From a virus (Duplodnaviria; Caudoviricetes): a DNA stretch of 50,267 nt. Location of the stretch: positions 1 to 50,267 of IMG/VR virus record IMGVR_UViG_3300025103_000026; one strand, 5' to 3'. Positions 7,498 to 23,626 of the stretch are shown one piece after another. Made by a program: the position numbers and the translations under genes. Numbering within the stretch: position 1 is the stretch's first letter; each line of letters opens with the position of its first letter. Under the pieces are notes generated by a model. That model searched no databases and was not told the origin of the DNA. It saw only the letters and a list, made by a program, of their open reading frames with translations.

Positions 7498-9062
7498 TAT
7501 GCAATCACCCAATTTTTAGGCATTTGTACGACCTTTCTATGAATACCTTTATGTGTTTCAAGTCCTGTCGGGGGTATAGAATACTTAACTGAATAAGCTA
7601 ATGCATCTATTGTATCATCATGTGCCATCCGTGGACCAAAAGTTATAATCTCATGTTGTAAGTCGTAATGTGTTTTTTTAATTTTTACTGCACCAATAGC
7701 CATCCTTTGTGCAAGGATTTCTTGGATACGGTCTCTTTTTGACATTCTTGTGCCGGGTTTTTCCTGCTTAACTTTTACGGTAAAATCGTTTCTACGCCTC
7801 ATCTCTGATATAATAGATTGGAATACTGGTCTTGACATTGTTGTATCCTCTATGACACTTAAACGGGGCTTAAATACAGAGTTCTGTTCAAATATATAAT
7901 CTACTATTCCTTTTTTATCCTCACCCGGTATAGCAAGAACAGGTAAACTTCTTTTACGAATATAATCTAAAACATAAATATTAGAATCCTCATCTATTGC
8001 TATAACAATTATAACACTAAAATCACTTTCCCTTCTTTCTGAATCTGTTGCCGGGTCTACTCCCATATATGTATTAACTGGTCTTTCCTGTCCATCAACC
8101 ACAATATAGTTCATTCCAGTATCTTCATCATGTTTAAAAGTTCCATCCCAATAGTTTATATGCCTCATATTAAAAATAGAATCTTCCTCAGACTGAACTT
8201 CCATCATATATTCTTGATAAAATTTATTTGCCTGTCCAGAATCAGCATAAAACTTCTTCTTTTCTTCAAGCTTAGATAATGGAAACCAACTATGCCATAA
8301 AGGTTGTCCATTCGGCTGAATTGCTTTATACATTAAAACTTCCCAGCTAAAATCTTCTTTATTTTTTTTAGCTCTTTCCGAATTAACAATAAGATTATTT
8401 ATAAAAGAATCAAAGTGTACAGGAGTACCGTTAATACGAAGCCTACCACCGTCAGGTTCTAATGCCGGATGTACAACTGCAGTTACCATATTTGCATTCT
8501 TAGAGCGACTATCAGCAGTTAGCGTATTATTTTCATCCTCAAAATCATCAAGAATAATAAGGTCATATCTTTTGTGAAGTTTAGCTCCACCACGAATACC
8601 AGATATATTTGATTTAGAAATAAGCTTGCAACCGTTAGAAAATTCAATATCCTGCTCTGTCCATTTTTTACCTTTTAAATCTCCAAAGTAGTATCTTATC
8701 ATATCATTCAGTTCAATATGAGTTTTAATATAATCCATATTGCCAGTCGCAAGCTTTTGAGTCGCAGATACCCAGCCATAAAATAGAGGTTCTCGTGCAA
8801 AACAAAAACTCCTCAGAATATCTGCCTTAGTCAATACTGTTTTTCCATGTCCTCTTGGTAGAATAATAGCAAGATTATTATATTTATAATTCTTGCCATC
8901 TCTTTCAGTCATCTTATCTGCCATCTTATAATGAAACCAAGGAGTATCTGAACGGTTAAAATCGTCTGGTAAAAACAACTTCCCGAAAGCAATTAAGTCA
9001 CGAGAAGCTAAAAGTAAAGCCTCTTCAGCTTTAGCTACATTTTGTGTATTATAGTTACTCAC
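7497..9062 (-). CDS. terL: Terminase large subunit
   Basis: Walker A PRGHGKT, Walker B LIILDDFE, coupling motif GTP, nuclease motifs GVDPA and HDDTIDA. Confidence 0.95.
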   Translation of the reverse strand: MSNYNTQNVAKAEEALLLASRDLIAFGKLFLPDDFNRSDTPWFHYKMADKMTERDGKNYKYNNLAIILPRGHGKTVLTKADILRSFCFAREPLFYGWVSATQKLATGNMDYIKTHIELNDMIRYYFGDLKGKKWTEQDIEFSNGCKLISKSNISGIRGGAKLHKRYDLIILDDFEDENNTLTADSRSKNANMVTAVVHPALEPDGGRLRINGTPVHFDSFINNLIVNSERAKKNKEDFSWEVLMYKAIQPNGQPLWHSWFPLSKLEEKKKFYADSGQANKFYQEYMMEVQSEEDSIFNMRHINYWDGTFKHDEDTGMNYIVVDGQERPVNTYMGVDPATDSERRESDFSVIIVIAIDEDSNIYVLDYIRKRSLPVLAIPGEDKKGIVDYIFEQNSVFKPRLSVIEDTTMSRPVFQSIISEMRRRNDFTVKVKQEKPGTRMSKRDRIQEILAQRMAIGAVKIKKTHYDLQHEIITFGPRMAHDDTIDALAYSVKYSIPPTGLETHKGIHRKVVQMPKNWVIA

Positions 9063-11352
9063 CTGCCTTATAGCCAGAGTGTGTATGAGTATGTGCTACA
9101 TCGCCAGCACTAGCCTCTCCTGATACCGTTACACAGCCACCATGTTCATATACAGGAGTAAATCCAGCTCTATTATCTTGAAGTTTACCACCCATCTCTA
9201 AAGCTTCACCTTCAAGCATACCACCATCTTTATACATTTTTTTAGTATAACCACCTGCCATAAACTGTGGAACTTTACCTGTTTCATTAAGATAGTTAAG
9301 TACATCATCACCAAGCTTTTTAGCAGAGGATTTTTTAATAACATATTCTCCACCTTCCATCTCAATAGGTTGGTTTCCTACATTAGCAGCTATACCACCT
9401 TTTTTATGAGAAGGTCCTGAAAGCATACCACCTTCTTGATATTTAAGACCATATTTCTTTCGCATCTTTTCTTGATATGCTGCTTTGGATTTAGCTATAT
9501 CTGCTTTTCTTTCTTCTCTTTCGCTTTTAAGTTTTACAGATTTCTTAGCCTGTTTTGCTTCATATGCTTGCTTTTGAAATACTTCTTTAGATTTATATTT
9601 TTTACCTGTTGCCGGGTCGAAATAACCTTTTTTCCTAAATATACCTTTAACTTTTTCAACACCTTTTTTAACTTTACCGACACCTTTTTTAACTGCTTTT
9701 CCTAATGGAAAATCAACAACTGCATCTTTTCCATGCTTTTCTTTAAACTTCTTTTCTCTATATTTAGCCTCTATATCAACTTCTGGTTCTTTTTTCTTTT
9801 TCTCTTTTATACCATATTGTTCAAAAGCATATTTTTTAGTCTTAGCATCTAATCTATCCGGATGCTTTTTCATCATCATTTTAAGTTGTCTTCGTTCATT
9901 GTCAGATTTTGGTCTTTTTTCCTTAACTGTTTTAACTTCTACTTTCTTAATTCCCTTTTCTTCCTGTCTTTTCTTATCTGCTTCTGTACCAAGTTCCACT
10001 CTTTTTCTAAACTTTGTTTCTGTTCTTTCAATCTTAGGAGGAGCTACGAACTTTTTAGTTCCCGGCTTATCAACTTGTTTACCTTGAGTCTTTCGTAGAG
10101 ATTTTAAAGTCTTTGGTCCAAGAGTTCCAAATCCGGCATCACCTTCTTTCATTCCCATTGCAGATACTTGATACTTCTTTACAGATTCCGGGTCATCACC
10201 TTTAATTGTTTTTGCAAGGTCTCTTGAGCTCTTAGGAGGTTCAGGTTCTACTTTAGGTTCTACTTTAGTTTTAACTTCTTTTTTAGGTTCTACTTTAGTT
10301 TTAACTTCTTTTTTAGGTTCTACAACTTTATTAGTTGATGTGCTTGAAATAACATTTCCGTCAGCATCATATTTTTTTTGACCAGAATAAACGGGTTTAT
10401 TATCTAAACTTTCTCTTCTTTCACGGTCTTCTTTAGCTGCTTGAGTCTTCCCTACAATATTTCTTATATCAAATAAAGGTTTACCTTTAGCACCGACTTT
10501 AGGGACTGTATCTTCTGTAATGCCTTTAGCCATCTTCTCTGCCATATCTAAAGACTCATCTTCTCTCTTCTTTAGATTTGATAATTGTCCACCAGGAGCA
10601 TATTTTATCTTACTTTTATATCTGGTTTTTTTAACAGGACCAGTTTTGTCATATCCACCTTTGGCAATTTTTTGCTCATATCTTGTTCTATGTGGACTCT
10701 GTGATTGAAGTTTTCTTAATTCATCTACATTAATCCCTAAATTAGCTGCAGTTTGAACTTCTTTGCCTGTCGGTTCTTTATAATGAGAACCACTTTTTTT
10801 AAAAGCCTTATCCCAATACTCTTTTTTAGCCTTACCACCATCTTTAAATATAGGTGTTCCTTCATCGTAAGATTTCTTAAGATGCTTTGCAATTTTTATA
10901 GTAGGTCCTATCGTAGGGATACTTCCTATTGCTTTTAAAATTTTCTGACCTTCAGTAAGAGGTGCTGGTTTACTATGTTTCTTTTTTAACTGTTTAACTC
11001 GGTCTTCAACAGGTTGGTCATGTATAGCTTTTTCCTTAAAAACAGTTGGTTTTGGTTTAACCTTAGGGGCTTTGCCCATCACTCTTCCAGCATCAGCTGC
11101 TAATTCTACATCAGATGGCTTACCACCTTTTTTCATCTTTCTTTTACTGCCTTTCATACGAGATTTTTCCTTTCTGCCACGATTAGTGGACTCTGGTTCT
11201 AATTTAACACCACCGTTTACATGAGAGACATCTAAGTTATCTCCATTACCATAAGTTCCCTTCTCATGGTTTATACGGTTTAATTCTGTTCTTTTTTTAA
11301 TTGAAGAAGGAGAGGATTGGAACTTTGAATATTCATCTTTGTAATCTCTCAC
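9055..11352 (-). CDS. Lys-rich protein with N-terminal HNH-like domain, [YF]xxGG repeats and GPSHxxGG domain
   Basis: N-terminal RDYKDEY...GDNLDVSH...NRGR, very high Lys content, C-terminal GPSHKKGGI..EMEGGEYVI. GTG start overlaps the upstream TGA. Confidence 0.6.
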   Translation of the reverse strand: MRDYKDEYSKFQSSPSSIKKRTELNRINHEKGTYGNGDNLDVSHVNGGVKLEPESTNRGRKEKSRMKGSKRKMKKGGKPSDVELAADAGRVMGKAPKVKPKPTVFKEKAIHDQPVEDRVKQLKKKHSKPAPLTEGQKILKAIGSIPTIGPTIKIAKHLKKSYDEGTPIFKDGGKAKKEYWDKAFKKSGSHYKEPTGKEVQTAANLGINVDELRKLQSQSPHRTRYEQKIAKGGYDKTGPVKKTRYKSKIKYAPGGQLSNLKKREDESLDMAEKMAKGITEDTVPKVGAKGKPLFDIRNIVGKTQAAKEDRERRESLDNKPVYSGQKKYDADGNVISSTSTNKVVEPKKEVKTKVEPKKEVKTKVEPKVEPEPPKSSRDLAKTIKGDDPESVKKYQVSAMGMKEGDAGFGTLGPKTLKSLRKTQGKQVDKPGTKKFVAPPKIERTETKFRKRVELGTEADKKRQEEKGIKKVEVKTVKEKRPKSDNERRQLKMMMKKHPDRLDAKTKKYAFEQYGIKEKKKKEPEVDIEAKYREKKFKEKHGKDAVVDFPLGKAVKKGVGKVKKGVEKVKGIFRKKGYFDPATGKKYKSKEVFQKQAYEAKQAKKSVKLKSEREERKADIAKSKAAYQEKMRKKYGLKYQEGGMLSGPSHKKGGIAANVGNQPIEMEGGEYVIKKSSAKKLGDDVLNYLNETGKVPQFMAGGYTKKMYKDGGMLEGEALEMGGKLQDNRAGFTPVYEHGGCVTVSGEASAGDVAHTHTHSGYKAGE
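10254..10323. repeat. In-frame 30-bp tandem repeat encoding VEPKKEVKTK
   Basis: ttaggttctactttagttttaacttctttt occurs twice plus a partial copy. Confidence 0.8.
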
Positions 11353-12306: not shown

Positions 12307-12963
12307 AGGGTAATATAACTATATGTTGCAATACTAAACTGTAAAAATTGTGGGATTTTAATGCTTGGCTAAAATAGAAACATACACCCCCATGCAAAGG
12401 GTTTCCGTACATATAATTCCGTTATTTTCCGTTTTTTTCCACAGGTTATGATTGATGCTGATATCTACAACCTACCACCAATGCTATCTGCTAGGGGTCT
12501 GCTATGCCTTAATCCTACACCTATATAATGCACCACTAAATATTCGTATGCTATCAACCTATTATAATACTTAATCTGATTAGCCACAACCAACACACCA
12601 CCAACCTATCCACCTACCTATCCACCTACCTATCTAAGCCTGTAATAAATAGTCTTGGTGTATATAGGTATTGGTAAAGAATGTGGTACTGTCGGGGGTC
12701 GGGAATCTGTCGGGATGGTAACCAAAGTTACTTTATTAGTAACAATAGTTACTTTATTTAATGCTATGATATTACGCTTACCCTCTGACAATCATAATGG
12801 CACAGGATTTGAACCAATAGATTTAGTTGGTAGTGAGGGCGTTTATTGTGAGTCGAGTCTAACAGGATGAAACAGGATAGTTATTATAGTTGTTGTTATG
12901 ACTACGGGATACAATTTTAAGATGACTCACTACTATTTTAGTAATTAATTAAGGAGTTTAAAT
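12307..12963. promoter_or_regulatory. Divergent non-coding control region (candidate pac/terminus and promoters)
   Basis: About 650 bp between divergent operons, with ACCTATCCACCT tandem repeats and a C-rich to G-rich switch near 12650. Confidence 0.5.
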
Positions 12964-13167
12964 ATGAGATTTATTCTAAACCAAGAACACCCCAATACAC
13001 CATTCAAAGTATCCTGTACCAATTGCAGTGATAACTATCTGATTGAGTATACTTATTCAGATTTAGATGGTGAACCATTTATTTATTGGTGTAGGGAGTG
13101 CTTGGTAATCTGTCGGGGGGAAGAGGTATTGCCTGTTAATTTTATATCACTACTTAAAAATAATTAA
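12964..13167 (+). CDS. Small Cys-containing early protein
   Basis: AAGGAG RBS, CxxC...CxxC. Confidence 0.6.
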   Translation: MRFILNQEHPNTPFKVSCTNCSDNYLIEYTYSDLDGEPFIYWCRECLVICRGEEVLPVNFISLLKNN

Positions 13168-13239
13168 ATGAGTACTTGCTTTGCATTCGCCAAGTGTACG
13201 AAGTTATCCCATCAATCAAATGAACGATTGAATGATTTT

Positions 13240-13572
13240 TGAAATAGGTGGTAACAGAGGGTCAGCCCATACAATAGATTTGAGGTTGACAACTGATTAG
13301 TTAACCATCGCCGAGAATAGACCATTGGAAACACCCATCATCGTAACACCAATGAAACAATCTGTATCAGTCACATAAAGGACTTAGTCAGTATCTATTA
13401 ACAGGTTGGAGTATCAAGTTATCAATGTTGGAAGTTGTAGAGGGTAGCAGTTATCGTAATGATGACAAGGAATGTGCGAGGGGTAGTCAATGAATGGTTA
13501 AGGTAGAAGTAGCGAATCTGCTAGAATATTAAATATTATGGACATTAGAATCTGTATGTTCAGTTATCAGTA
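13240..13572 (+). ncRNA. Candidate large structured non-coding RNA
   Basis: No ORF of 60 aa or more. Multiple nested and crossing helices, an AGUA/GAA-containing loop, a boxA-like TGATTTTTGAAAT upstream and a tRNA-like element downstream. Confidence 0.45.
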
Positions 13573-13660
13573 TGGAATGTATATGGAAGATAGATGTAGC
13601 TAAGGCTTAGTGATTAATTCACAGATAATCTGTCGGGGGTCGATACCTCGCATTCCACTA
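13573..13660 (+). ncRNA. Degenerate tRNA-like element
   Basis: TGGAATG/CATTCCA acceptor-like stem and T-arm CGGGG-GTCGATA-CCTCG, ending in CTA. No canonical D or anticodon arm. Confidence 0.5.
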
Positions 13661-13693
13661 ATTTTTTTAATCAATAAAACAGGAGAATAAATA

Positions 13694-13936
13694 ATGAACA
13701 GAGATTGTCAATTTATAATCGACTTACAGAGCGAGAATAATAAAAAAAGAAATTATAACTTAGGGTGGTACAATTTAATTGTATCTATTCGAGATTTGAG
13801 CCTGTACAATAAGGGTATTAAACCTCATAGAAATTGGAAAATTACACCCTTAAAGAATTACTTTAACATAAAAGGTAATTCAGAAAAAATGTTAGAACAA
13901 TTAAGAATAAAAAAAGATATCCTAACTAACGGCTAA
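13694..13936 (+). CDS. Hypothetical early protein
   Basis: 80 aa, AGGAG RBS. Confidence 0.75.
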   Translation: MNRDCQFIIDLQSENNKKRNYNLGWYNLIVSIRDLSLYNKGIKPHRNWKITPLKNYFNIKGNSEKMLEQLRIKKDILTNG

Positions 13937-13981
13937 ATGTAGATGGTCTTTTGGGGGGTTCAATTCCCCCCTACATTTCTA
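13935..13981 (+). ncRNA. tRNA-like minihelix (acceptor stem plus T arm), copy 1
   Basis: AAATGTAG..GGGGG-TTCAATT-CCCCC-CTACATT-T-CTA followed by a T tract. Confidence 0.6.
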
Positions 13982-14018
13982 ATTTTTTTTAACCAACAAA
14001 ACAGGAGAATAAATAGTT

Positions 14019-14234
14019 ATGAATCCAAAATTAACTGATTATGAGATAACAATTAGCGACAAAAAGAGTGGTCGAGTTTATGATGTTATCGATTTAGAAT
14101 CATATAAAACTGATAAAATCGAAGAGTGGAAAAAATACTTTCCAAATGATATTTTTGATGATGAAAGTTTAAAAAGTGAAATAGTTGAATTAATGGAAAG
14201 CTATCTAACTGATATTATAAAGGAGAATAAATAG
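14019..14234 (+). CDS. Hypothetical early protein
   Basis: 71 aa, flanked on both sides by GGAGAATAAATAGTTATG junction motifs. Confidence 0.75.
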   Translation: MNPKLTDYEITISDKKSGRVYDVIDLESYKTDKIEEWKKYFPNDIFDDESLKSEIVELMESYLTDIIKENK

Positions 14235-14236
14235 TT

Positions 14237-14377
14237 ATGAATACAGAAAAATTTTGCGTCGTTAAAATAGGTGATGATAAGTATTTCAATAGAATATTTA
14301 ATTTCACGGGGAATATGAGTGAATGTATATCATTTGCATCAACCAAAAGATTTGGTGGTGGTGTAGAAGTTATATAA
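14237..14377 (+). CDS. Hypothetical 46-aa protein (not in ORF track)
   Basis: MNTEKFCVVKIGDDK...GGGVEVI, starting at the junction-motif ATG. Confidence 0.65.
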   Translation: MNTEKFCVVKIGDDKYFNRIFNFTGNMSECISFASTKRFGGGVEVI

Positions 14378-14378
14378 T

Positions 14379-14425
14379 AAATGTAGATGGTCTTTTGGGG
14401 GGTTCGATTCCCCCCTACATTTCTA
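14379..14425 (+). ncRNA. tRNA-like minihelix, copy 2
   Basis: Identical to copy 1 except the T loop reads TTCGATT. Followed by a T tract. Confidence 0.6.
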
Positions 14426-14455
14426 GTTTTTTTTAAAACACACACGGGAGTAATT

Positions 14456-14623
14456 ATGTATGTATGCAAAGATGGTTGGCGAGGTAGAGTTGATGAGCCA
14501 TATAAGAACGGCTTAAAAGACAATTCTAAGACTCAAGAACAATTAGAGAGAGAGATTATTAGAGAGACTAATAAGACCTCTAGATATCACAATATTTCTA
14601 AACAAAAACTAGCGAGGTCGTAA
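14456..14623 (+). CDS. Hypothetical early protein
   Basis: GGGAG RBS before ATG 14456. Confidence 0.55.
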   Translation: MYVCKDGWRGRVDEPYKNGLKDNSKTQEQLEREIIRETNKTSRYHNISKQKLARS

Positions 14624-14691
14624 ATGATAGGATTTGTATTATTTCCAATTATTATAATGTCAATTATTGAACTTGCAGAAAGGCTATAATT

Positions 14692-15090
14692 ATGTATAAA
14701 GACAATTATAATATATTTTCTATACATTCAGATTCAATTATGGATGTACTGAAAGCCTACCCAAATACTTGCGATAGTGTTGATAGCAGTTTATTACAAT
14801 TAATTAAATCTAATGTTAATTCTGTACACCCTTACAAAAGATTAACTCTAGATAGTTTTATTTATATTAAACTAGTAAAGGTTGATGATTATGGTTCTGA
14901 CTCAGGATTTAAGAGTGAGTACATTATATCAATGGATGATGGACTACCTAAGATGTATGCTGAGAAGGTATTTGATAGGCTTTTAGAATTAGGTATTAAA
15001 TTCAAGTTAAATGGATTAACCAAAGGGCAAATAGTTTCAAATACAATGAAAAGAATAAATAATAGATATAAAATTGAGGAGAATAAATAG
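14692..15090 (+). CDS. Hypothetical early protein
   Basis: 132 aa, ends EENK* in the junction motif. Confidence 0.7.
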   Translation: MYKDNYNIFSIHSDSIMDVLKAYPNTCDSVDSSLLQLIKSNVNSVHPYKRLTLDSFIYIKLVKVDDYGSDSGFKSEYIISMDDGLPKMYAEKVFDRLLELGIKFKLNGLTKGQIVSNTMKRINNRYKIEENK

Positions 15091-15092
15091 TT

Positions 15093-15332
15093 ATGAGAAT
15101 TACACTTAAAAAAATAAACAGATTATTAGAAAAATATGGATTAGAAATAGTTAAATGGAATGACTCGTATAGTGAATATTATTACTACTCTTCAATTAAT
15201 GATGATGGTGATAAGATTATGATGAATGCATCTGATGGGACAATCCATTGTCACCAATTAAATGAAATGAATATAGTAAAACATATCGAAACCTTTTCAA
15301 CTTTTATTGAATCAACTATGGAGAATAAATAG
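15093..15332 (+). CDS. Hypothetical early protein
   Basis: Junction-motif RBS, ends MENK*. Confidence 0.75.
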   Translation: MRITLKKINRLLEKYGLEIVKWNDSYSEYYYYSSINDDGDKIMMNASDGTIHCHQLNEMNIVKHIETFSTFIESTMENK

Positions 15333-15334
15333 TT

Positions 15335-15520
15335 ATGGATTATAAAACAAAAGTCAATGAATTATGGGATTACTTAGAAAATACAGAAACAGCTACAAAA
15401 GAAGAAATATGCTTAGTGACCTCAATTAATGGAACGAATTTAGAATCCTTAGAGAGTATTTTATATTCTCGCACAGGATGGAGAAGTTTAGAACAAATAT
15501 TACAAATGGAGGATAAATAA
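15335..15520 (+). CDS. Hypothetical early protein
   Basis: Junction-motif RBS, ATKEEICLVTSING..YSRTGWRSLEQ. Confidence 0.75.
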   Translation: MDYKTKVNELWDYLENTETATKEEICLVTSINGTNLESLESILYSRTGWRSLEQILQMEDK

Positions 15521-15741
15521 TGTATAGAAAAAATATATCAAGTTTACTTAGAAATAAAAGAAATGCTTATCACAGAAACATTACCGTAGATAGCATGAAT
15601 GAAATATCAGATGGATATTATGAGATGTTTATTGACAATCTTAATATTGAATACCTTAATGAAGACAAAGCAAGAGCAGTATTAAGAATTATCCACCTAT
15701 TTGAAACAGATTTATTAAATGAAATTAAGGAGGAAGAATAG
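15520..15741 (+). CDS. Hypothetical early protein
   Basis: GGAGG RBS, TAATG coupling. Confidence 0.7.
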   Translation: MYRKNISSLLRNKRNAYHRNITVDSMNEISDGYYEMFIDNLNIEYLNEDKARAVLRIIHLFETDLLNEIKEEE

Positions 15742-15743
15742 TT

Positions 15744-16106
15744 ATGAATAAATTAAAATTAAAAATAGATGGTGTAGGATATGAATATATTGTTCTGAAC
15801 GGGGTTAGTCGGGGGTATAAATGTGTTAGTAATGATGTGATAGAATTTTTTCACCTGAGAAAGCAAAAGAAAAATAGATTTATTGCTGGCTATAGACCTT
15901 GGCAACCTGAGTCGCTCGACATAGTAAATGGTAGTAAATTGGAATTGAAATGCTCAGAGGTTAAAAACGGTAGACCATCCTATGCCCTGTATGACCTTAG
16001 TTATGATGGTACAGAGGGTATGGTATCAGTTAAAGTAGAATTTGTATCTTATGATGGTACAGATTATATGGGTAGAGATTATACATTATTTAGCGAGGAA
16101 AAATAG
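15744..16106 (+). CDS. Hypothetical early protein
   Basis: Junction-motif RBS, internal SYDGT duplication. Confidence 0.7.
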   Translation: MNKLKLKIDGVGYEYIVLNGVSRGYKCVSNDVIEFFHLRKQKKNRFIAGYRPWQPESLDIVNGSKLELKCSEVKNGRPSYALYDLSYDGTEGMVSVKVEFVSYDGTDYMGRDYTLFSEEK

Positions 16107-16108
16107 TT

Positions 16109-16294
16109 ATGACTAAAGGACAATTAATGCAGTTGAATTATACTGCTGATGAATTAAAACAGATAGACCCAAGTCTACCTATGGATGTATCAGAAGACCT
16201 TAGAAGTAAGGGTGAAGATACATATTTTTATGTAATGAATTATAATAATAATTGTCTTGGACAATTAGAAAAAATGGAGAATAAATGTTATTAG
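16109..16294 (+). CDS. Hypothetical early protein
   Basis: Junction-motif RBS. Confidence 0.7.
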   Translation: MTKGQLMQLNYTADELKQIDPSLPMDVSEDLRSKGEDTYFYVMNYNNNCLGQLEKMENKCY

Positions 16295-16473
16295 AAGAAA
16301 AAAATATTAAAGGTATAACGGTACGAATGTATCATAATTGCATTGAGATTAGTAGTATTGTTAATAATCAATACTACCACCGAAAGTATATAGGATATAC
16401 AGAAGAACAAGCAATTAGTTTATTTAAAACAGGTTTATCTTTTTTAGGAGTAAGTACTTTTATAAAATTATAA
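16285..16473 (+). CDS. Hypothetical early protein
   Basis: GGAG RBS, overlaps the upstream gene. Confidence 0.7.
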   Translation: MLLEEKNIKGITVRMYHNCIEISSIVNNQYYHRKYIGYTEEQAISLFKTGLSFLGVSTFIKL

Positions 16474-16488
16474 AATTAAGGAGAATAA

Positions 16489-16740
16489 ATGAAAATAATA
16501 ATATTTAAGGATGCTCAAGGTGATATGAATTGGAGATTTCAATCACAGATGATTCCTTCAAGCACTATACTTGGAGTAATTCAAGTAAAGTTTAAAGATA
16601 TTGAATTGATTGATTTTAATTCTATTAAGATAAATTATGTTAATGAGTTCTATGCGACTAAAAGAGGACTCATTATTTTAATGGAAAATTCAAATAATTT
16701 TGTATTCCATTATGAAAAAGAAAAACAGGAGATTAAATGA
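16489..16740 (+). CDS. Hypothetical early protein
   Basis: AAGGAG RBS. Confidence 0.65.
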   Translation: MKIIIFKDAQGDMNWRFQSQMIPSSTILGVIQVKFKDIELIDFNSIKINYVNEFYATKRGLIILMENSNNFVFHYEKEKQEIK

Positions 16741-17033
16741 AACATTGTAAAAAATGTGGGAATCGATTTAGAACATTAGTTGATGGTATTTTTAGTGGTA
16801 CAGAGATTTGTATTAATCACGACTTTAAATATGGTAGCTATGCAGATGGGGATGGTTGGAGAATTACAGAATATCCAAGTTTAGATACTGAATGTGTATG
16901 GTACTATGAGGTAGCTGAATGGAAAGACGGAAATATTGTTGAAGATGAACTTGGAAATGATGATGGAGAGCATTTTGATAATTTAGAGCATGCTCTTGAA
17001 TATCTTGAAGAACAATTAGAGGAGAGTAAATGA
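16737..17033 (+). CDS. Hypothetical acidic early protein with N-terminal CxxC
   Basis: ATGA coupling, AGGAG RBS. Confidence 0.7.
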   Translation: MKHCKKCGNRFRTLVDGIFSGTEICINHDFKYGSYADGDGWRITEYPSLDTECVWYYEVAEWKDGNIVEDELGNDDGEHFDNLEHALEYLEEQLEESK

Positions 17034-17314
17034 GAATATTAGTTAATAAAAAAGGTGACAAGTTATATTTTAGAGGATGGGAGGGTGCTTTTGCATCCAC
17101 CATTATGTTTATGGCTGAATCATATCAACACGACATTAAAAGAGTAGAGAATAATTTGTCGGCTTATCAACTGAATAAGTTAAACAAAGGTAAGTTAATA
17201 TACTTACAGAGAAGACACCCTAAGTACAAGTTATATGAATCTTTATTGAATCAATTAAAGTGGCTTAAAGGTATAGATGTTTGGACTAAAAACGGATATG
17301 AAGGAGATTATTAA
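17030..17314 (+). CDS. Hypothetical early protein
   Basis: ATGA coupling, GGAG RBS. Confidence 0.7.
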   Translation: MRILVNKKGDKLYFRGWEGAFASTIMFMAESYQHDIKRVENNLSAYQLNKLNKGKLIYLQRRHPKYKLYESLLNQLKWLKGIDVWTKNGYEGDY

Positions 17315-17315
17315 G

Positions 17316-17576
17316 ATGAAGATATTATTTGAGAGAATAGAGTGGTCATTAGGGATGACCTTAATGTCTTTAGTTTCAGCAGTATGTATGTTTATGATAG
17401 TGATGCTTTCATACAATATAGTTGATGACTATGGTAGAGAGAATAGATTGCTCAGAGCAATTGCATCTGACCAAGCACTAATATTAGAAGGCAAGAGAAT
17501 TAATTTCACATCACCACACGAGTTAGAATTAAACCGACAAAAATACAATAAACTATTAGGAGATATGTATGAGTGA
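17316..17576 (+). CDS. Hypothetical membrane protein
   Basis: AAGGAG RBS before ATG 17316, one hydrophobic segment (LGMTLMSLVSAVCMFMIVML). Confidence 0.65.
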   Translation: MKILFERIEWSLGMTLMSLVSAVCMFMIVMLSYNIVDDYGRENRLLRAIASDQALILEGKRINFTSPHELELNRQKYNKLLGDMYE

Positions 17577-18015
17577 AGATACAACATTACGATATTGGTA
17601 TGAAGTAGCAGTTACTTGGGATGAAGATAATGGTACAGATACCATTGCACAATTTGACAGTCTTGAACAGGCTGTAAAGTTTATGAATGATGATAAAGAA
17701 ATTGAATCAGAATTACAACCCGATATGTTTGAGTATGTCGAAAATGTATTTATAGATAAATGGCTTGGTGATACCATTATGCCAAATTATAAAGATAGAA
17801 AGTTTAATGCAATTATCAGAACAATTAACAAGCCAAAAACTAAAGCAGTAATAACTTGGTATGCAGAGGACATTAAAAGTCAATGCGATACACTAACTGA
17901 TAAACAAATAGGGGATGTACTTTCTTTAATTGAAAATAACCACGATGCTACCATTGGGGTCAATTGGGAAGTTATTAATTATTACATAGAAAAAGTTACT
18001 AAGGAGGGTAAATGA
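17569..18015 (+). CDS. Hypothetical early protein
   Basis: 148 aa, AGGAG RBS, C-terminal NHDATIGVNWEVI. Confidence 0.75.
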   Translation: MSEDTTLRYWYEVAVTWDEDNGTDTIAQFDSLEQAVKFMNDDKEIESELQPDMFEYVENVFIDKWLGDTIMPNYKDRKFNAIIRTINKPKTKAVITWYAEDIKSQCDTLTDKQIGDVLSLIENNHDATIGVNWEVINYYIEKVTKEGK

Positions 18016-18129
18016 ACGAAGCAATTAGAAGATTAACAGAGATGCTTAAATGGAGCGATAGACTAGGCAATGATGAAAGGCTTGAAATAGAATTTGCAAT
18101 TAATATTTTAAAAATGATAAGGAGAGTAA

Positions 18130-18354
18130 ATGATGAAAGTTAAAAGTATAAGATACTTTGAAACAAATAGAGGTTTAGGCTATGAAGCCAAGACAGACAA
18201 GGGCAGTATTTGGAATGATGGTAGTGGTGGGGATACATATTTTGAACCCGATTATCCTAAATATAAAAGAAGTCAATTCAACCATCTTTCTGAAGATGAT
18301 TTAGAAAAACTAATAGATGTTTACGAAATAAAAATAGGGGCATTAGTACAATGA
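18130..18354 (+). CDS. Hypothetical early protein
   Basis: AGGAG RBS, YFETNRGLGY..IWNDGSGG. Confidence 0.75.
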   Translation: MMKVKSIRYFETNRGLGYEAKTDKGSIWNDGSGGDTYFEPDYPKYKRSQFNHLSEDDLEKLIDVYEIKIGALVQ

Positions 18355-18671
18355 AGAAAGTTAAAGTAGCAAAAACAATAGAGAGATTTATTAGAAAGCA
18401 TGGCTTAGATACAGATGTTAGGATTTATTTCTCTAATAAGGCTTGGGATTATGATTCATTCGGTAAGAAAACAATACTTACTGACATCAAGGCATCTGAT
18501 TATTTTGCCTATGCAAATGATGATACAATTAGTATGAGTTTTGAGGGAGCATTAAACTCTGCTTTGAATATGTATAATGGGTATGAGTTGTTTGATAAGT
18601 TTAGTGATTTAGATTTTGATGGGTATCATTTCGAGATGGGTGAGTCTTGGAATGGTGCATTTTTTAAATAA
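18351..18671 (+). CDS. Hypothetical early protein
   Basis: 106 aa, ATGA coupling. Confidence 0.75.
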   Translation: MKKVKVAKTIERFIRKHGLDTDVRIYFSNKAWDYDSFGKKTILTDIKASDYFAYANDDTISMSFEGALNSALNMYNGYELFDKFSDLDFDGYHFEMGESWNGAFFK

Positions 18672-18687
18672 AAAAAAGGAGAATAAT

Positions 18688-18900
18688 ATGTGGACTTGTA
18701 TAGAATGTGATAAGAAGTTTAATGGTTTGACAGGGGATACAGATGAGAGGGTATGTTATGAATGTATCGAAGAAGAATATGAAGTTAATGTATCGGGTTG
18801 TTTTACTATTCTTGCTAAAAGCCAAGAAAGTGCAAACAGATGGGTAGAAGATAATATAAAAGAATATATTGGAGAATTAGAAATAGGAGAGGAGGATTAA
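18688..18900 (+). CDS. Hypothetical zinc-finger protein
   Basis: AAGGAG RBS before ATG 18688, CIEC...CYEC. Confidence 0.65.
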   Translation: MWTCIECDKKFNGLTGDTDERVCYECIEEEYEVNVSGCFTILAKSQESANRWVEDNIKEYIGELEIGEED

Positions 18901-19125
18901 ATGAAAAATATAGATTATGATTCAAAAAGTTATAAAATAATGTGTATTATGGATATAATGTTGGACATTAATCCTAATTACAGAAATGATTTTGATGATT
19001 CAGAAGATATGTATATTAATTTATCAAATTTAATTACAAAATTTGAAGAACAAGATAATGGTGATGGTGCTTGGTATGATTCCCTTGTTGATTTTTTACA
19101 AAAAGAATATAAGGAGATTAAATGA
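18901..19125 (+). CDS. Hypothetical acidic protein
   Basis: GGAGG RBS. Confidence 0.7.
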   Translation: MKNIDYDSKSYKIMCIMDIMLDINPNYRNDFDDSEDMYINLSNLITKFEEQDNGDGAWYDSLVDFLQKEYKEIK

Positions 19126-19559
19126 AAACAGAAAATGAAATAAGAGAATACCTTGCTGATTGTAAGGAAGCAGTTAAGGAACTTGATAAAATGCAAGATA
19201 GTCTACAAGCCTGTAAATATGAAGGTATTGTTGAGGGTTTAGAGTTTGCATTGTCAGACACATCACTTGTGACTAAGGAAGAACAATCCAAGTTAAATAG
19301 CATTGCTGACTTTATTCTACATCAGAACTACCCTAAATCAGCCAATGGTATCTTTGCTTATTCAACAGCATACGATATAGACTATGATGTTAATGGTTGG
19401 GGCAGAGATGATAAAGGTATTGAGATTATCGTTTTTGAGGTTGTGTATGGACAAAAAGATGATTGTCATAATACTACACATTCAGTAGATATGAAAGTAA
19501 GAAGAGATGTACTTAATCAATGGGGTGGTAATGGACTACCACAATTAGAGGAGGATTAG
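19122..19559 (+). CDS. Hypothetical protein
   Basis: 145 aa, ATGA coupling. Confidence 0.7.
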   Translation: MKTENEIREYLADCKEAVKELDKMQDSLQACKYEGIVEGLEFALSDTSLVTKEEQSKLNSIADFILHQNYPKSANGIFAYSTAYDIDYDVNGWGRDDKGIEIIVFEVVYGQKDDCHNTTHSVDMKVRRDVLNQWGGNGLPQLEED

Positions 19560-19850
19560 ATGAGCAGATTTTTAAGCGACCATATAGATGACTATTGCAG
19601 AGAGAAATATGGTCATAGTAATTGGGGGTATCTTAATGGATATAGTAAGGAGGATTTGTCGAGGGCTAAACATACTATTGAGGGCAGTATAGTCTTTTGG
19701 AAAAATGGAATGTGCGAAGAATGTGATGATGACAATCCTAATTGGAATGATGAGAATGATGAGAATTATTATCTATGTGATAAATGTAAATCAGTTATAG
19801 ACAGAGATGATGATAGTGAAGCAAAAACAATAGGAGTAGAGAATGAATAA
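19560..19850 (+). CDS. Hypothetical zinc-finger protein
   Basis: GGAGG RBS, CEEC...CDKC. Confidence 0.7.
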   Translation: MSRFLSDHIDDYCREKYGHSNWGYLNGYSKEDLSRAKHTIEGSIVFWKNGMCEECDDDNPNWNDENDENYYLCDKCKSVIDRDDDSEAKTIGVENE

Positions 19851-20091
19851 AGAAGATATATATTTAAATTTATCCCTTGTAATTCACTTGGCAGAAATGC
19901 TTGGCTTGGAAGAACTTGAGGGTGTTCCACTACACAAACAAATCATTGAAGAAGTTAATAAACTTAACCTTATAGAAAGATGGGTTGAGTTTGAAATGGC
20001 TTATGTCTGTGAAGATAATAGTGTAATGAAAACGGCTTTAAAAGAATCTAAAGAAGAATTTATTTCTAAATTTACAGGAAAAAAAAGCTAA
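19843..20091 (+). CDS. Hypothetical protein
   Basis: AGGAG RBS. Confidence 0.65.
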   Translation: MNKEDIYLNLSLVIHLAEMLGLEELEGVPLHKQIIEEVNKLNLIERWVEFEMAYVCEDNSVMKTALKESKEEFISKFTGKKS

Positions 20092-20097
20092 AACAGG

Positions 20098-20131
20098 TTG
20101 CTTGTAAAGTGGAAAGCAATGTATATTATAT
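20098..20131 (+). promoter_or_regulatory. Sigma70-like promoter overlapped by an inverted repeat
   Basis: TTGCTT-N18-TATATT. TTGCTT-N10-AAGCAA is an inverted repeat (possible operator). Confidence 0.5.
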
Positions 20132-20164
20132 AACCCAAAAACAACAAAAAAAAAGGGAAGACAA

Positions 20165-20341
20165 ATGAGTAAAATGAAAGATATGTTAATCGAATCTTAT
20201 GAAGAGCCAACACCTTGTGAGTCTGATTATATGACAGATGAAGAAATGAAAAAGGCTATGCAACAAACACAAGATGACCACCTTCAAGCAATAAATGATA
20301 GGGTTGTTCAAGAAGGTATTGACAGGAGAAAAGGAAAATGA
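20165..20341 (+). CDS. Hypothetical 58-aa protein (not in ORF track)
   Basis: MSKMKDMLIE...RRKGK, coupled to the next gene by ATGA. Confidence 0.6.
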   Translation: MSKMKDMLIESYEEPTPCESDYMTDEEMKKAMQQTQDDHLQAINDRVVQEGIDRRKGK

Positions 20342-20700
20342 TATTAAAATTCAAACAGAAACTATGTCATAATGGTTATCCAATGGTAGACCTTCAAGGT
20401 GAGGGTTATTCAAATTGGGATTGTTATGATGGTCTGATAGAGTATCAAATAGAACTTGATGTTAAAGAGTATGGAATTAAAGACATCATACCATCTATAA
20501 TTTCATTTAGGGTTCATATTGAAGAAATGGATGGGAAGGGTACTAAAACAATCGACTTAAAAGATGTTGAGTATAAAGACTTTGGACAATCTCAAGCTGA
20601 ATCTTGGACACAAAGAGGAGATGCAATATGCAATGGCTTACACATTAGCCATGTAGTGCTAGACTTAGATAGTAGGATTGTAGATGTATGTATGAAGTAA
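20338..20700 (+). CDS. Hypothetical protein
   Basis: 120 aa, IEYQIELDVKEYGIKDI. Confidence 0.7.
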   Translation: MILKFKQKLCHNGYPMVDLQGEGYSNWDCYDGLIEYQIELDVKEYGIKDIIPSIISFRVHIEEMDGKGTKTIDLKDVEYKDFGQSQAESWTQRGDAICNGLHISHVVLDLDSRIVDVCMK

Positions 20701-20951
20701 TTAAATTATCAAATCTAAGTGAAGCAGATATTGGAGAGAATCTTGGTGTAACAAGGCAGTTTGTTCATCAATGGAGTTCGGGTAAAAGACCAATACCAGC
20801 CAAATATAAAGATAAACTATATAAGATACTTTTGAATAGCTTATTAGCTTCAATAGAAAAGCAAAGAGAAGGTATAAAAATGTTAGAAAAAAGTGTTGCA
20901 ATTCAAGTAAGTAAACCACAACACTTAGGAAAACCAAACACAATAAAATAA
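20688..20951 (+). CDS. XRE/Cro-family HTH transcriptional regulator
   Basis: LSEADIGENLGVTRQFVHQWSSGKRPIP. Confidence 0.8.
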   Translation: MYEVIKLSNLSEADIGENLGVTRQFVHQWSSGKRPIPAKYKDKLYKILLNSLLASIEKQREGIKMLEKSVAIQVSKPQHLGKPNTIK

Positions 20952-20955
20952 AGGA

Positions 20956-21633
20956 GTGTTAATGAAAAAAGCAAGTGAAATACTTGAAATGTTAAAAAAA
21001 GATACCGAGAAGCATGAGATTAAATTCCGAGAGGGTAACACCTTTGGAAATAGGGCGAATATGTTAGCCTATATTGATGCAAGGTATGTAATGGATAGAT
21101 TAGACGAAGCAACAGATGGATATTGGAAGAGTGAGTACAAAGAGATTAAGGGTAACTTGTTCTGTGGTATATCTGTTTTGCTTGACGGGGAGTGGGTAAC
21201 TAAATGGGATGTCGGAGTTCCAAGTAACTTTGAAGCTCAGAAAGGTGAAGCATCAGATTCGTTTAAAAGAGCTGGTGTAATGTGGGGTATAGCGAGAGAT
21301 TTATATCATCTTGGTAGATTTACTGCACCACTTGGAGATAATGGCAAAGCACCCTATAATTGGAAGCCAGAAGGATGGGATAAGACAAAGATTGTACCCG
21401 ACTCTTTAGAATTAGCACCACATAACAGACCAACTAAAGAAATAATGGTTTCAGTTGAGGAGTCTTATGCTGAAGCTAAGAAGCTAGGTTTACTAACTAA
21501 AGAATGGGATGAGAAAATGCTGGAGAATATTAATAAATATAAAATCAAACAGCTTGATAAAAAGACAGCACTTTCTATGTTAGAAAATATGCAGAAACTT
21601 TTAAATAACCATAAAATACAAGGAGACTCATAA
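20956..21633 (+). CDS. Rad52/Rad22-family single-strand annealing protein (Sak-like)
   Basis: YIDARYVMDRLDE, WVTKWDVG and KGEASDSFKRAGVMWGIARDLY. Confidence 0.9.
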   Translation: MLMKKASEILEMLKKDTEKHEIKFREGNTFGNRANMLAYIDARYVMDRLDEATDGYWKSEYKEIKGNLFCGISVLLDGEWVTKWDVGVPSNFEAQKGEASDSFKRAGVMWGIARDLYHLGRFTAPLGDNGKAPYNWKPEGWDKTKIVPDSLELAPHNRPTKEIMVSVEESYAEAKKLGLLTKEWDEKMLENINKYKIKQLDKKTALSMLENMQKLLNNHKIQGDS

Positions 21634-22121
21634 TGAGTGAATACAAACCGAATCTAAAAATAGAAGTTGGAGAACCTAAGTTGGTTAAATTTCTATTCAA
21701 TGATGCTATACCTGTGACAACGAAGTTTGGACAAAGGTATAGATATACTTTAAGTACTGCTGGGGTTGAGCATCAAATGTTAGCAACTAGCACCTTGCAC
21801 GGCTTAATATCTCAACACTCACCACTTAGGGATAAGGAGCTTACCATAGGTAAAGTAAAGGTTGATGATAAGATAACTACTTTTACAATTAATGGTATGA
21901 CTATGGATGACTTGAAGAAGAAGGAGGGGAAGGATTTTACCTCTGTCTTGGATGGTAGTAAGTCTGTCGGGAGCTATGATGATGGTGTTGTTTTAAAAGG
22001 TAGTTTAGATGACCTATGGAGAGAGATTAACAAACTCAACAAAGCTTTAAAGGTTGTAATGGAAAGAGCAGAGGCTTTGGAGGGTTCTAAGACTACTGAA
22101 GCTGATGAAGATTTGTTCTAA
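21633..22121 (+). CDS. Putative single-stranded DNA-binding protein
   Basis: Follows Sak. Beta-rich N-terminus and acidic tail DEDLF, with a DEDLPF variant in the duplicated sequence. Confidence 0.65.
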   Translation: MSEYKPNLKIEVGEPKLVKFLFNDAIPVTTKFGQRYRYTLSTAGVEHQMLATSTLHGLISQHSPLRDKELTIGKVKVDDKITTFTINGMTMDDLKKKEGKDFTSVLDGSKSVGSYDDGVVLKGSLDDLWREINKLNKALKVVMERAEALEGSKTTEADEDLF

Positions 22122-22145
22122 GACTACTGAAGCTGATGAAGATTT
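22084..22145. repeat. 31-bp perfect tandem duplication at the SSB 3' end
   Basis: gttctaagactactgaagctgatgaagattt occurs twice. Confidence 0.95.
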
Positions 22146-22151
22146 ACCCTT

Positions 22152-22300
22152 CTAGGTTTAACCTAGGTTTAATACCTATACTTAATAGATTACAACCTAT
22201 GTTTACCTACACATCTAGGTTTAACCTATATTATGCCCTGTGGATAATGTTGATAACTCGCATTATCCGAGGGTATGATAGTGTTAATGATTGTGGATAA
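22152..22300. promoter_or_regulatory. Candidate replication origin: AGGTTTAACCT palindromes plus DnaA boxes
   Basis: TGTGGATAA at 22239 and 22292, TGTTGATAA at 22248. AGGTTTAACCT at 22154 and 22217 plus degenerate copies. Confidence 0.6.
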
Positions 22301-22733
22301 CTTGAGTAAAACTAAAAAATCTGAGCAATTAGGCATGAATTATTCTACTGCTCAAAATAGACTCCGTAAAAAAATATTATTCATGATGATACAGAAATTA
22401 AAACTTGATGAGTGTTTTCAATGTAAAACATTAATAGTTGAGTCTCAAGATTTAAGCATTGAGCATAAAATTCCGTGGTTGGATGGTGATACAAGATTGT
22501 TTTGGGATTTAGATAACATAGCTTTTTCTCATATAAGCTGTAATGCATCAGCATCAAGATATAGTACTAGAAAAAAATACACACACAAGATAGAGGATAG
22601 AGAGAATGAAAAGGGGCATTATCCAAGCAGAACTTGGTATGATAGGGGATGTCGGTGTCATTCCTGTAAGGAAATTAAAAGGCTTTCGAAAAGGAAGCAC
22701 GAAAAAGATGTTGAATTTTTAAAGGAGGAATAA
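22275..22733 (+). CDS. HNH endonuclease with zinc-binding motifs
   Basis: CFQC..LSIEHKIPW..NIAFSHISCN and C-terminal GCRCHSC. True start may be TTG 22302. Confidence 0.8.
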   Translation: MIVLMIVDNLSKTKKSEQLGMNYSTAQNRLRKKILFMMIQKLKLDECFQCKTLIVESQDLSIEHKIPWLDGDTRLFWDLDNIAFSHISCNASASRYSTRKKYTHKIEDRENEKGHYPSRTWYDRGCRCHSCKEIKRLSKRKHEKDVEFLKEE

Positions 22734-22876
22734 ATGAAAACTTTTAGAATAATTTATTATGATGATTTACAGGATGAAAATAGGTGGGTAGAAATTGAAG
22801 CCAAAACAGAAAAAGAAGCTGTAAAGAGATTTAGAGGTAGGTCTATAATTTCAATAAAAGAAAAGGAAGAAAAAAA

Positions 22877-23047
22877 ATGAATTGCTGGCATTGTAAAAAA
22901 AAATTAATATGGGGTGGTGACCATTCTTACGAAGATTGTGGAACTGAGGGAGATGGAATAGTTTCAAATCTAAGTTGCTCAAATGAAGAATGTAGAGTTG
23001 AACAGGTTTTAGTTTATTTTAATACAGAGGAGGAAAAGAATGATTAA
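22877..23047 (+). CDS. Small zinc-ribbon protein (not in ORF track)
   Basis: MNCWHCKKKLIWGGDH...NLSCSNEEC. Confidence 0.7.
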   Translation: MNCWHCKKKLIWGGDHSYEDCGTEGDGIVSNLSCSNEECRVEQVLVYFNTEEEKND

Positions 23048-23187
23048 TTATTATATATGTCTAATATTCGGTTTTATAATGGGCTATTTTATCGCTTGCT
23101 TAATGATGATGGCAAAAGGAAATACAAAAGTTGATATGGATGTCCATAGTTGGAGAAATAATGAAATAAAAGTTATGGGGGAAGAAA

Positions 23188-23469
23188 ATGAGTAAATATT
23201 CGTCAAAATGGGATAAACATTGGGAGGAGCAGACATTCGGTGCTTGGTGGTTACCAAATCAAAAATATATACCGAATAATAATCTTGAAAAGAACAGCAA
23301 TGCAACCTCTATTAGATATTGTAAAGAGTGCGATTCTGTCTATGATAAAGTTTGGTCAAATGGTAGATATAAACTTTATATATGGGAAGATTTTCCAAAA
23401 ACACAAAAGGAGAAGATTTGCCCATCTTGTGAAGGAAAAAAAGATTGCAAGGTTATGAGTGAAGAGTGA
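23188..23469 (+). CDS. Zinc-finger protein
   Basis: YCKEC...DFP...ICPSC. Confidence 0.7.
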   Translation: MSKYSSKWDKHWEEQTFGAWWLPNQKYIPNNNLEKNSNATSIRYCKECDSVYDKVWSNGRYKLYIWEDFPKTQKEKICPSCEGKKDCKVMSEE

Positions 23470-23626
23470 AAATGGTTATAATTATACAGTTAAGTTTTGT
23501 GAAAAGTGCAATCGTGCTTGGGAGAAAGAAGGAAAAAATATCTTAATACATGTTGATTTCCCAACACTTGGATTGAGAAGAGAAGTTTGTAAGAATTGCA
23601 AAAAGGAGGATAATGAAAGAGACTAG
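23459..23626 (+). CDS. Zinc-finger protein, paralogue of the upstream gene (not in ORF track)
   Basis: GTG start, VKFCEKC...DFP...VCKNC. Confidence 0.6.
   Translation: MKSENGYNYTVKFCEKCNRAWEKEGKNILIHVDFPTLGLRREVCKNCKKEDNERD

Follow-up and report, generated by a model that had tools for sequence, protein, structure and literature searches.

The question raised by this locus is what occupies positions 13168-13693 of the IMG/VR virus record IMGVR_UViG_3300025103_000026, a Caudoviricetes genome of which the entire 50,267 bp were analyzed here (the window; estimated completeness 90%, G+C content about 33%). The gap runs from the stop codon of a 67-codon open reading frame (ORF), at 13167, to the first early ATG, at 13694, and lies at the head of a + strand block (12964-28441) of small genes with strong Shine-Dalgarno sequences. 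An earlier note on this DNA had placed a structured non-coding RNA there, either a relative of the phage RNAs GOLLD and ROOL or a new class, with its 3' end set by a tRNA-like element. The proposal of a structured RNA, possibly of a new class and ending in that way, is supported by covariation among homologues and by a conserved tRNA-like module: positions 13226-13657 very probably hold a real, selected structure on the + strand and, judged by sequence comparison, this leader is best read as a new RNA family outside Rfam. What it does can be proposed only tentatively, and our confidence in the following statement as a whole falls somewhat short of even: these ~430 nucleotides (nt) of the + strand would be an early-operon leader RNA that acts in cis on the polymerase and whose modules are cut by RNase P or RNase Z.

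The gap does not encode a recognizable protein. From the stop at 13167 to the ATG its longest stop-to-stop frame has 45 codons, in line with the claim that the stretch is free of ORFs, and the lone start-to-stop ORF of at least 30 codons is a 40-codon frame on the - strand (13212-13334). Reading TAG as glutamine or applying genetic code 4 opened no credible ORF, and a protein gene was ruled out on both strands under code 11, TAG = Q and code 4. Comparison with Rfam gave no family at the gathering threshold in the whole window; the nine matches at E ≤ 10 in 12400-14400 include none within 13168-13693 and none to GOLLD or ROOL. ARAGORN called no tRNA or transfer-messenger RNA gene in the window, and blastn of 12400-14400 against 50,697 phage records returned zero matches. 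Nor did the single sequence fold better than expected: the minimum free energy of 13233-13572 corresponded to a z score of +0.56 on the + strand, with 69 of 100 shuffles as good, and of +0.12 on the - strand. The comparison with shuffled controls that the earlier note had proposed would, taken by itself, sink the finding; the comparative evidence reverses that outcome. Even if the element were functionless, it would serve as a worked example of structure that a single-sequence folding score missed and that relatives reveal.

Homologues were searched from a base of 80 IMG/VR contigs gathered by similarity of their large terminases (65-76% identity), none of which has detectable DNA similarity to the gap or a tblastn match to the window's early genes. 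The small-terminase-like protein, used to scan metagenomes, yielded five closer contigs, two of which, L086 and L084, reach the gap region; L086 is 77% identical over 13226-13504, and in L084 only the two ends of the leader match. L234, a 56-kb IMG/VR contig close to L084, was found by scanning for the hairpin loop described below. The full-length set consists of four sequences (the window, L086, L084 and L234) that form two pairs of close relatives. A three-sequence nhmmer profile, run on 160 loci, gave significant matches only to its own members L086 and L084. Exact-word scans of IMG/VR found no match to the 20-nt 5' box and two chance matches to a 16-nt piece of the tRNA-like module, and a box-gap-loop pattern retrieved L234, L411 (a fragment of the same phage) and one chance match. 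The parts of the leader, numbered on the window, are these:

13226-13247, + strand: 5' box, of which 13231-13246 (AATGATTTTTGAAATA) is invariant in the alignment of all four full-length homologues
13247-13309, + strand: Domain 1, in which helix P1 (13247-13251 with 13305-13309) encloses P3
13261-13290, + strand: signature hairpin P3, stem 13261-13267 with 13284-13290 and 16-nt loop CAUACAAUAGAUUUGA at 13268-13283
13321-13498, + strand: Domain 2, the stack of P4, P5 and P6 that closes a variable insert (13346-13474)
13321-13326 with 13493-13498, + strand: helix P4, read by eye
13331-13336 with 13481-13487, + strand: helix P5, with A13485 bulged, from the four-sequence alignment
13341-13345 with 13475-13479, + strand: helix P6, from the four-sequence alignment
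13502-13522, + strand: small hairpin; in L086 two of its pairs are changed on both sides, two on one side and one is broken
13523-13572, + strand: window-specific tail, mostly absent from L086, L084 and L234 in the alignment
13573-13657, + strand: tRNA-like module, acceptor stem 13573-13579 with 13651-13657, without D arm or anticodon arm
13589-13594 with 13629-13634, + strand: central arm of the module, with a 34-nt insert
13634/5-13638 with 13646-13650, + strand: T arm of the module, with the 7-nt loop GUCGAUA

The signature hairpin P3 carries most of the argument. It sits about 20 nt after the invariant 16-nt box in all four full-length sequences, and its loop of 15-16 nt is near-invariant. 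In ten instances from related contigs, picked without regard to their stems, 91.4% of the 70 cells of the stem alignment are paired, as against 47.1 ± 5.2% after shuffling (a value reached by none of 500 shuffles); all seven pairs show a change on both sides, and sliding one strand by 1-3 columns lowers the pairing to 30-47%. This alignment contains six G-U cells, on the + strand. The same loop is flanked by different complementary arms in the ORF-free heads of L005, L011 (twice), L015/L016 and L021, contigs collected by terminase similarity alone, and L019 has versions of P3 with a small stem-loop inserted in the loop. All ten loop-motif matches in contigs collected by terminase similarity have 4-8 flanking pairs, whereas the 15 exact matches found in prokaryotes (one genome each of 185,579 bacterial and archaeal species) have 1-4, ten of them the closing pair only. 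The covariation, the restriction of the pairing to phages and the six G-U cells together indicate that P3 is a real, phage-specific element of the + strand. One copy is present in the window and two in each of L084, L234, L011 and L361. Two scans of IMG/VR for the loop motif gave at least 232 matches, mostly due to chance, and among the matches listed 12 have five or more flanking pairs. A covariance model of the hairpin (R1), run on 83 sources, recovered its nine training copies and a weak match at 42359-42391 (- strand, E 0.15) that was dismissed.

P3 also occurs outside this lineage. In an unrelated phage group (L204, L209, L212, L232 and L235) its loop is borne on a 12-bp stem, 8-17 nt past a class-II-like tRNA gene. 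This association of the loop with tRNA-type sequence in two lineages argues that the hairpin may be a portable functional module. The anticodons that ARAGORN assigns to these tRNA genes differ (Leu CAA, an unassigned 'gg' and the stop-reading TTA), the ORF that lies downstream in L212 is short, and stop-codon recoding may occur in this group. In the sister subgroup the ORF-free leaders are purine-rich, with many GACGAG words (L005 1080-1660, L011 1960-2420, L019 1100-1580 and L021 900-1420, in oriented upstream-region coordinates), and carry one or two P3 hairpins each; a 56-nt block is 93-95% identical between contigs of this subgroup that are otherwise 70-78% identical.

The four full-length sequences extend the pairing beyond P3. 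The test on their alignment covered P1, P5, P6 and the acceptor and T stems: (i) 110 of 111 cells are paired (99.1%), against 92.2% in shuffled alignments, none of 500 of which reaches this value, (ii) seven pairs are changed on both sides, a number reached by two of the 500 shuffles, (iii) slid controls give 32-50%, and (iv) eight G-U cells appear on the + strand. By stem, all 20 cells of P1 are paired and four of its five pairs changed on both sides, while P5 and P6 together are paired in 43 of 44 cells, with three such pairs. Covariation is found both in P3 and in this alignment, and the remark of the earlier note that G-U pairs favor the + strand holds for both; these pairs place the structure on the + strand, in the same direction as the early genes. 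Domain 1 folds with a z score of -2.42 (3 of 200 shuffles as good) and pair probabilities of 0.94-0.95, and the Domain 2 helices have pair probabilities of 0.54-0.83. P4 reads ACCAUU/AAUGGU in the window and L086, GCUUGU/ACAAGU in L084 and GCUUGU/GCAAGU in L234, a full compensation by eye. The two lineages space P4, P5 and P6 alike, with gaps of 4 and 4 nt along the 5' strand and of 1 and 5 nt along the 3' strand. The insert that these helices close measures about 130 nt in the window; in L084 and L234 its length is 70 nt and it holds the second copy of P3. The whole leader of L084 folds better than its shuffles (z -3.37), as does that of L234 (z -2.25). In the Boltzmann ensemble of the window the conserved helices have probabilities of 0.54-0.96 and the T stem 0.33, and imposing the full set carries a cost of 1.2 kcal/mol. 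A loop-to-linker kissing interaction was dropped on inspection by eye, as L086 breaks it without compensation.

Most of the helices proposed in the earlier note are not those of the conserved fold. Its complementary words are all present where it had placed them, and four of the six helices drawn from them are deleted or broken in the relatives: AATAGAT/ATCTATT loses three of seven pairs and CTGATTAG/TTAGTCAG six of eight, the 3' strand of each being deleted in all three relatives; the hairpin GTTATC...GATGAC is deleted in all three as well; and the pseudoknot TTAACCAT/ATGGTTAA is 69% paired, is broken in L086 and borrows its 3' strand from P4. CATTGG/CCAATG survives in part: it is unchanged in L086, but absent from L084 and L234, and it overlaps the 5' strand of P4 and competes with that better-supported helix. 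The hairpin GGTAGA...TCTGCT at 13502-13522 is the only one of the list with compensatory change, its two compensated pairs being those of L086; taken alone it reaches a z score of -0.94 only, and the folds of L084 and L234 have a hairpin of other sequence in its place.

The tRNA-like element announced directly after 13572 was found at 13573-13657. It combines a perfect 7-bp acceptor stem, a 10-nt linker with GG and a 5-bp T stem that abuts the 3' strand of the acceptor; the arrangement of a 7-bp acceptor on a 5-bp T stem with a 7-nt T-type loop is conserved in L086, L084 and L234. In the four-sequence alignment all 47 lettered cells of the two stems are paired, with one-sided changes only, and the middle pair of the central arm varies across homologues (U-G, U-A or C-G). 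The module folds with z scores of -2.25 in the window, -3.64 in L084, -4.24 in L234 and -1.57 in L086, although its interior ranges from 23 nt (L084 and L234) to 54 nt (window). It ends 36 nt before the ATG at 13694 in the window and 20-21 nt before the first early gene in L084 and L234. We rejected it as a tRNA proper, as ARAGORN called no gene, no Rfam tRNA match appeared at E ≤ 10 and it folds without D and anticodon arms. In 10 of the 12 contigs that bear the hairpin, a strict scan found an acceptor/T-arm module, with unrelated stem sequences, between the hairpin and the first early gene; such a scan gives about one chance match per 4 kb (seen in L083), so that its value lies in the constant position and not in the pairing. 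Looser versions were read by eye in L015 and L021. The acceptor 5' strands of distant modules were out of register in the MAFFT alignment, and those stems were left uncounted. In L066, L078 and L082 (by ARAGORN) and in L075 the leader is absent and a real tRNA-Met gene (CAT) stands at the relative position of the module, about 1.2-1.9 kb upstream of the small-terminase-like gene; this shared position hints that the module descends from a tRNA gene.

At the other end, the boxA-like word TGATTTTTGAAAT noted at 13233-13245 lies within the 16-nt stretch that is invariant in all four sequences. The 5' box marks the upstream edge of common conservation, beyond which the window and L234 differ from L084 and L086. 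It contains the start of a short upstream ORF (ATG 13232, MIFEI...; region 13232-13300) that has no Shine-Dalgarno sequence and whose length is 22 codons in the window, 8 in L086, 17 in L084 and 22 in L234. A strand-specific word precedes the box:

13106-13119, + strand: word TAATCTGTCGGGGG, some 110 nt ahead of the 5' box, with a similar word at the same relative place in L234, L084 and L086

This word could be a promoter or a pause signal. The related word CTGTCGGGG, allowing up to one mismatch, occurs 18 times in the window (1035-47422) against 1.42 expected, and 15 of the 18 copies lie on the + strand regardless of gene direction; exact CTGTCGGGGG copies start at 7565, 12689, 13110, 13630 and 28178, all five on the + strand. 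Four copies of this type lie close together where the early region begins (ahead of the 67-codon ORF, about 110 nt upstream of the leader and within the tRNA-like module), and L234, L084 and L086 have TCTGTCGRGG at matching relative places. A role as promoter, pause signal or nick site is conceivable.

Several points weigh against the reading of 13226-13657 as a structured, cis-acting leader. The tested structure was derived from the same four sequences on which it was tested, and the long-range helices rest on about two independent lineages. The whole leader folds no better than its shuffles in the window (13226-13657, + strand, z -0.01) or in L086 (z +0.56). P4 stands outside the pair count, MAFFT having set its 5' strand one column off, and the 100% pairing of the T stem in 13 modules is circular, since the scan demands that pairing, and was not used as evidence. 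Stem covariation alone cannot separate an RNA hairpin from a hairpin of single-stranded DNA. No T run follows the first module in L084 and L234, so that 'terminator' is not a conserved property of it. Finally, a search for sigma-70-like promoter sites gave 13 against 11.7 expected and picked out no promoter.

What the leader might do is suggested by what follows it. Terminator-like elements were found at 13658, 13978 and 14422, and the sequences that make them up are as follows:

13662-13668, + strand: run of seven T, 4 nt past the acceptor stem of the tRNA-like module; present in the window and L086, not in L084 or L234
13936-13990, + strand: mini tRNA-like terminator 1, with a 7-bp acceptor, an 11-nt linker, a G/C T arm with loop TTCAATT and a run of eight T
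14380-14434, + strand: mini tRNA-like terminator 2, 97% identical to the first

The run at 13662-13668 is a possible intrinsic-terminator tail. The mini units measure 59 nt (13934-13992 and 14378-14436), have a 6-bp G/C T arm, are each followed by eight T and come behind the first and the third early gene of the window; L084 has a copy after its own first early gene (26-67, - strand of L084). A consensus terminator scan calls both mini elements and not 13573-13657, and the element at 13936 weakly matches the mascRNA-menRNA model of Rfam, scoring 22.7 bits where the threshold is 42.5, with an E value of 0.13. A scan of the window for acceptor/T-arm elements found three, all on the + strand at 13573-14421 and within 850 nt, where 0.32 are expected in shuffles; the remaining 14 kb of + strand genes contain six terminators against 4.3 expected, which is no excess.

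This arrangement underlies the function that we propose. The position of the leader upstream of three tRNA-like elements tailed by T runs (13573-14434, + strand) argues for action in cis; being presumably transcribed first, close to the first ATG and ahead of a tight terminator-like cluster without later counterpart, it is read as a cis-acting leader. No phage-type RNA polymerase was found in the record by Pfam, PHROGs and PDB sequence searches, and the host enzyme therefore likely transcribes the early region; a six-frame search with PF00940 gave no match either, a weak blank as the control genomes were silent too. Domain searches brought up no integrase-type or polymerase-type explanation. 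In the proposed sequence of events, host RNA polymerase would transcribe the leader first, the box and the hairpin would act in cis on the elongating enzyme, directly or via a protein, and the polymerase would then read through the three tRNA-like terminators that crowd the following 800 nt. The tRNA-like modules would next be cut by host RNase P and/or RNase Z, an event that would free the leader and punctuate the early mRNAs. The read-through role of hairpin and box, in the manner of nut or put sites, and that of the modules as RNase P/Z cutting signals are guesses made by analogy.

Named phages are distant from this genome: their large terminases reach an identity of only 24-27% at best. 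The - strand up to 12306 encodes an SU10-type capsid protein, a portal, the large terminase and a small-terminase-like gene of 229 codons. A 765-codon ORF without family (9055-11352, - strand) lies between the small-terminase-like and large terminase genes, which are adjacent in nearly all relatives, unlike in the window; L003, L014 and L075 match short pieces of it only. In the structural block, a 2889-codon ORF (28438-37107, - strand) gave neither a Pfam domain above threshold nor a match among PDB sequences; its sole match is one PHROG of unknown function at residues 868-981. The divergent intergenic region beside the small-terminase-like gene (12598-12633 and 12718-12758) holds three tandem 12-mers of the CCACCTACCTAT type, with a fourth copy 47 nt upstream, and two adjoining GTAAC-4 nt-GTTAC hairpins. 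Similar repeats occur in L084, L086 and L234, and they may be part of an origin or packaging site.

The alternatives to the leader differ in what they make of this evidence. If the stretch were a functionless spacer, with chance helices and similarity by ancestry alone, z scores near zero for the whole region in the window and L086 would be expected, and so would the identity of the two sequences, which is 77% here and 76% in the neighboring intergenic DNA; but every tested stem shows compensatory changes, slid and shuffled controls are far lower, and contigs with terminases only 70-76% identical share an invariant 16-nt loop in leaders that neither blastn nor nhmmer can otherwise align, and we consider a spacer highly improbable. 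Kinship with GOLLD or ROOL, as the earlier note had suggested, is scarcely credible: a large non-coding phage stretch beside a tRNA-like element does recall them, but no Rfam model is matched at gathering thresholds in the window or at E ≤ 10 in 13168-13693, 18 related loci yield only tRNA genes, and both RNAs are longer than ~430 nt. It is very unlikely, too, that the upstream ORF at ATG 13232, together with the structure downstream, forms a translational or attenuation leader that sets the expression of the first early gene. Its ATG and first five codons are invariant in all four sequences and its frame enters the hairpin loop in the same register in three of them, yet it lacks the Shine-Dalgarno sequence that the neighboring early genes (families D1-D3) have, its peptides of 22, 8, 17 and 22 codons share no similarity past codon 5, and distant relatives have the hairpin without the 5' box.

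Two further explanations accept the hairpin and dispute its mode of action. It could belong to a stable trans-acting RNA, released by T-run termination or RNase P, whose loop would be a decoy or sponge for a host RNA-binding protein or a defense factor; we hold this to be unlikely. A loop kept to the nucleotide on a freely changing stem is what such a decoy would show, the two copies in L084, L234, L011 and L361 are sponge-like, and the hairpin found 8-17 nt past a tRNA gene in an unrelated phage group suggests a portable module that binds something common. However, the window has a single copy, the module of L084 and L234 runs into the ribosome site of the first gene without a T run, which fits a leader better, and the motif is absent as a hairpin from the representative genomes of 185,579 species, so that no mimicked host RNA was found. 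Alternatively, the element could act at the DNA level. Folded in supercoiled or single-stranded DNA, its hairpin would be used by an injected polymerase as a promoter, as happens in phage N4, would mark an origin or a primosome site, or would signal packaging or ejection at the leading genome end. Conserved loops on covarying stems also characterize the DNA hairpin promoters of phage N4; the leader adjoins the divergent intergenic region with its 12-mer repeats and small-terminase-like gene, the genome has the 2889-codon ORF of unknown function, and the strand-specific word (18 copies against 1.4 expected) clusters here. Against this, a stem of 5-8 bp with G-T wobbles and a 16-nt loop would make a poor cruciform, the frequent G-U pairs are all on the + strand, P1 and P4-P6 span 60-180 nt, the tRNA-like module is sensible as RNA, and neither the giant ORF nor the rest of the record yielded a polymerase domain. 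A DNA-level element appears quite unlikely to us.

Returning to the cis-acting leader, it is tempting to speculate further, in a version that we regard as doubtful as a whole: a modular 'leader plus tRNA punctuation' system would operate at the start of infection in a clade of uncultured marine podophages, in which hairpin and box would reprogram the host polymerase or capture a host factor, the acceptor/T-arm shapes would both terminate transcripts and mark RNase P/Z cuts, and the hairpin would have spread to unrelated phages. Should the reading as a cis-acting leader hold, it would provide a further case of early phage transcription controlled by RNA and, as far as our searches show, the first of tRNA-shaped elements punctuating a phage operon. 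It would also add an uncatalogued phage RNA family, of clear anatomy, on the first DNA to enter the cell in abundant uncultured marine phages, and the 16-nt loop would be a ready probe for its partner.

Several known systems resemble the leader in part. A catalogue published in 2023 of 8,495 candidate structured RNAs of 29-151 nt, including tRNA-like and cis elements directly upstream of genes, was derived from IMG/VR (PMC10690425), the source of the present record, and deals with objects of this kind. Full-text literature searches, the passages drawn on from that study included, brought up no account of a leader like this one; the candidates in its supplements may include the hairpin or the tRNA-like module. 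GOLLD and ROOL share with the leader the rank of large phage non-coding RNAs beside tRNA-type sequence, but the leader matches neither model and differs in size and architecture. Its neighbor in the window is a tRNA-like module and not a tRNA gene, a real tRNA-Met being found only in more distant relatives without leader. Like a phage tRNA, the module stacks a 7-bp acceptor on a 5-bp T stem with a 7-nt T-type loop; it differs in lacking D and anticodon arms, in its interior of 23-54 nt and in being called neither by ARAGORN nor by the Rfam tRNA model.

Another parallel may lie in tRNA-like processing signals, such as that found inside a longer transcript in the MALAT1/mascRNA arrangement. In plant mitochondria, t-elements mark mRNA ends and are regarded as likely substrates of RNase P or Z (PMC1920247). 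The modules resemble both in mimicking acceptor and T arm without a working anticodon arm, at the junction of a non-coding RNA and the next unit; they differ in standing in a phage operon, in the T runs that follow them in the window, which make termination possible as well, and in a mascRNA-menRNA score below threshold. If the proposed punctuation is true, it would be the counterpart, in a bacterial virus, of mitochondrial tRNA punctuation.

For the leader itself, the nearest models are cis-acting elements of processive antitermination on phage early transcripts, of which the lambda nut sites, with their boxA-boxB arrangement, are an example. The put RNA of HK022 acts alone on the elongation complex to bring about processive antitermination (PMC9378689). 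Like these, the leader would lie on the nascent early transcript, after the presumed start and before a series of terminators, and it has a single-stranded box followed about 20 nt on by a hairpin in which the unpaired nucleotides, and not the stem, are conserved. Unlike them, it shows no similarity in sequence or by covariance model, and it extends over ~430 nt with long-range helices and a 16-nt loop. The likeness to nut and put sites is therefore an analogy of layout, in which the leader may work like them, and not one of membership.

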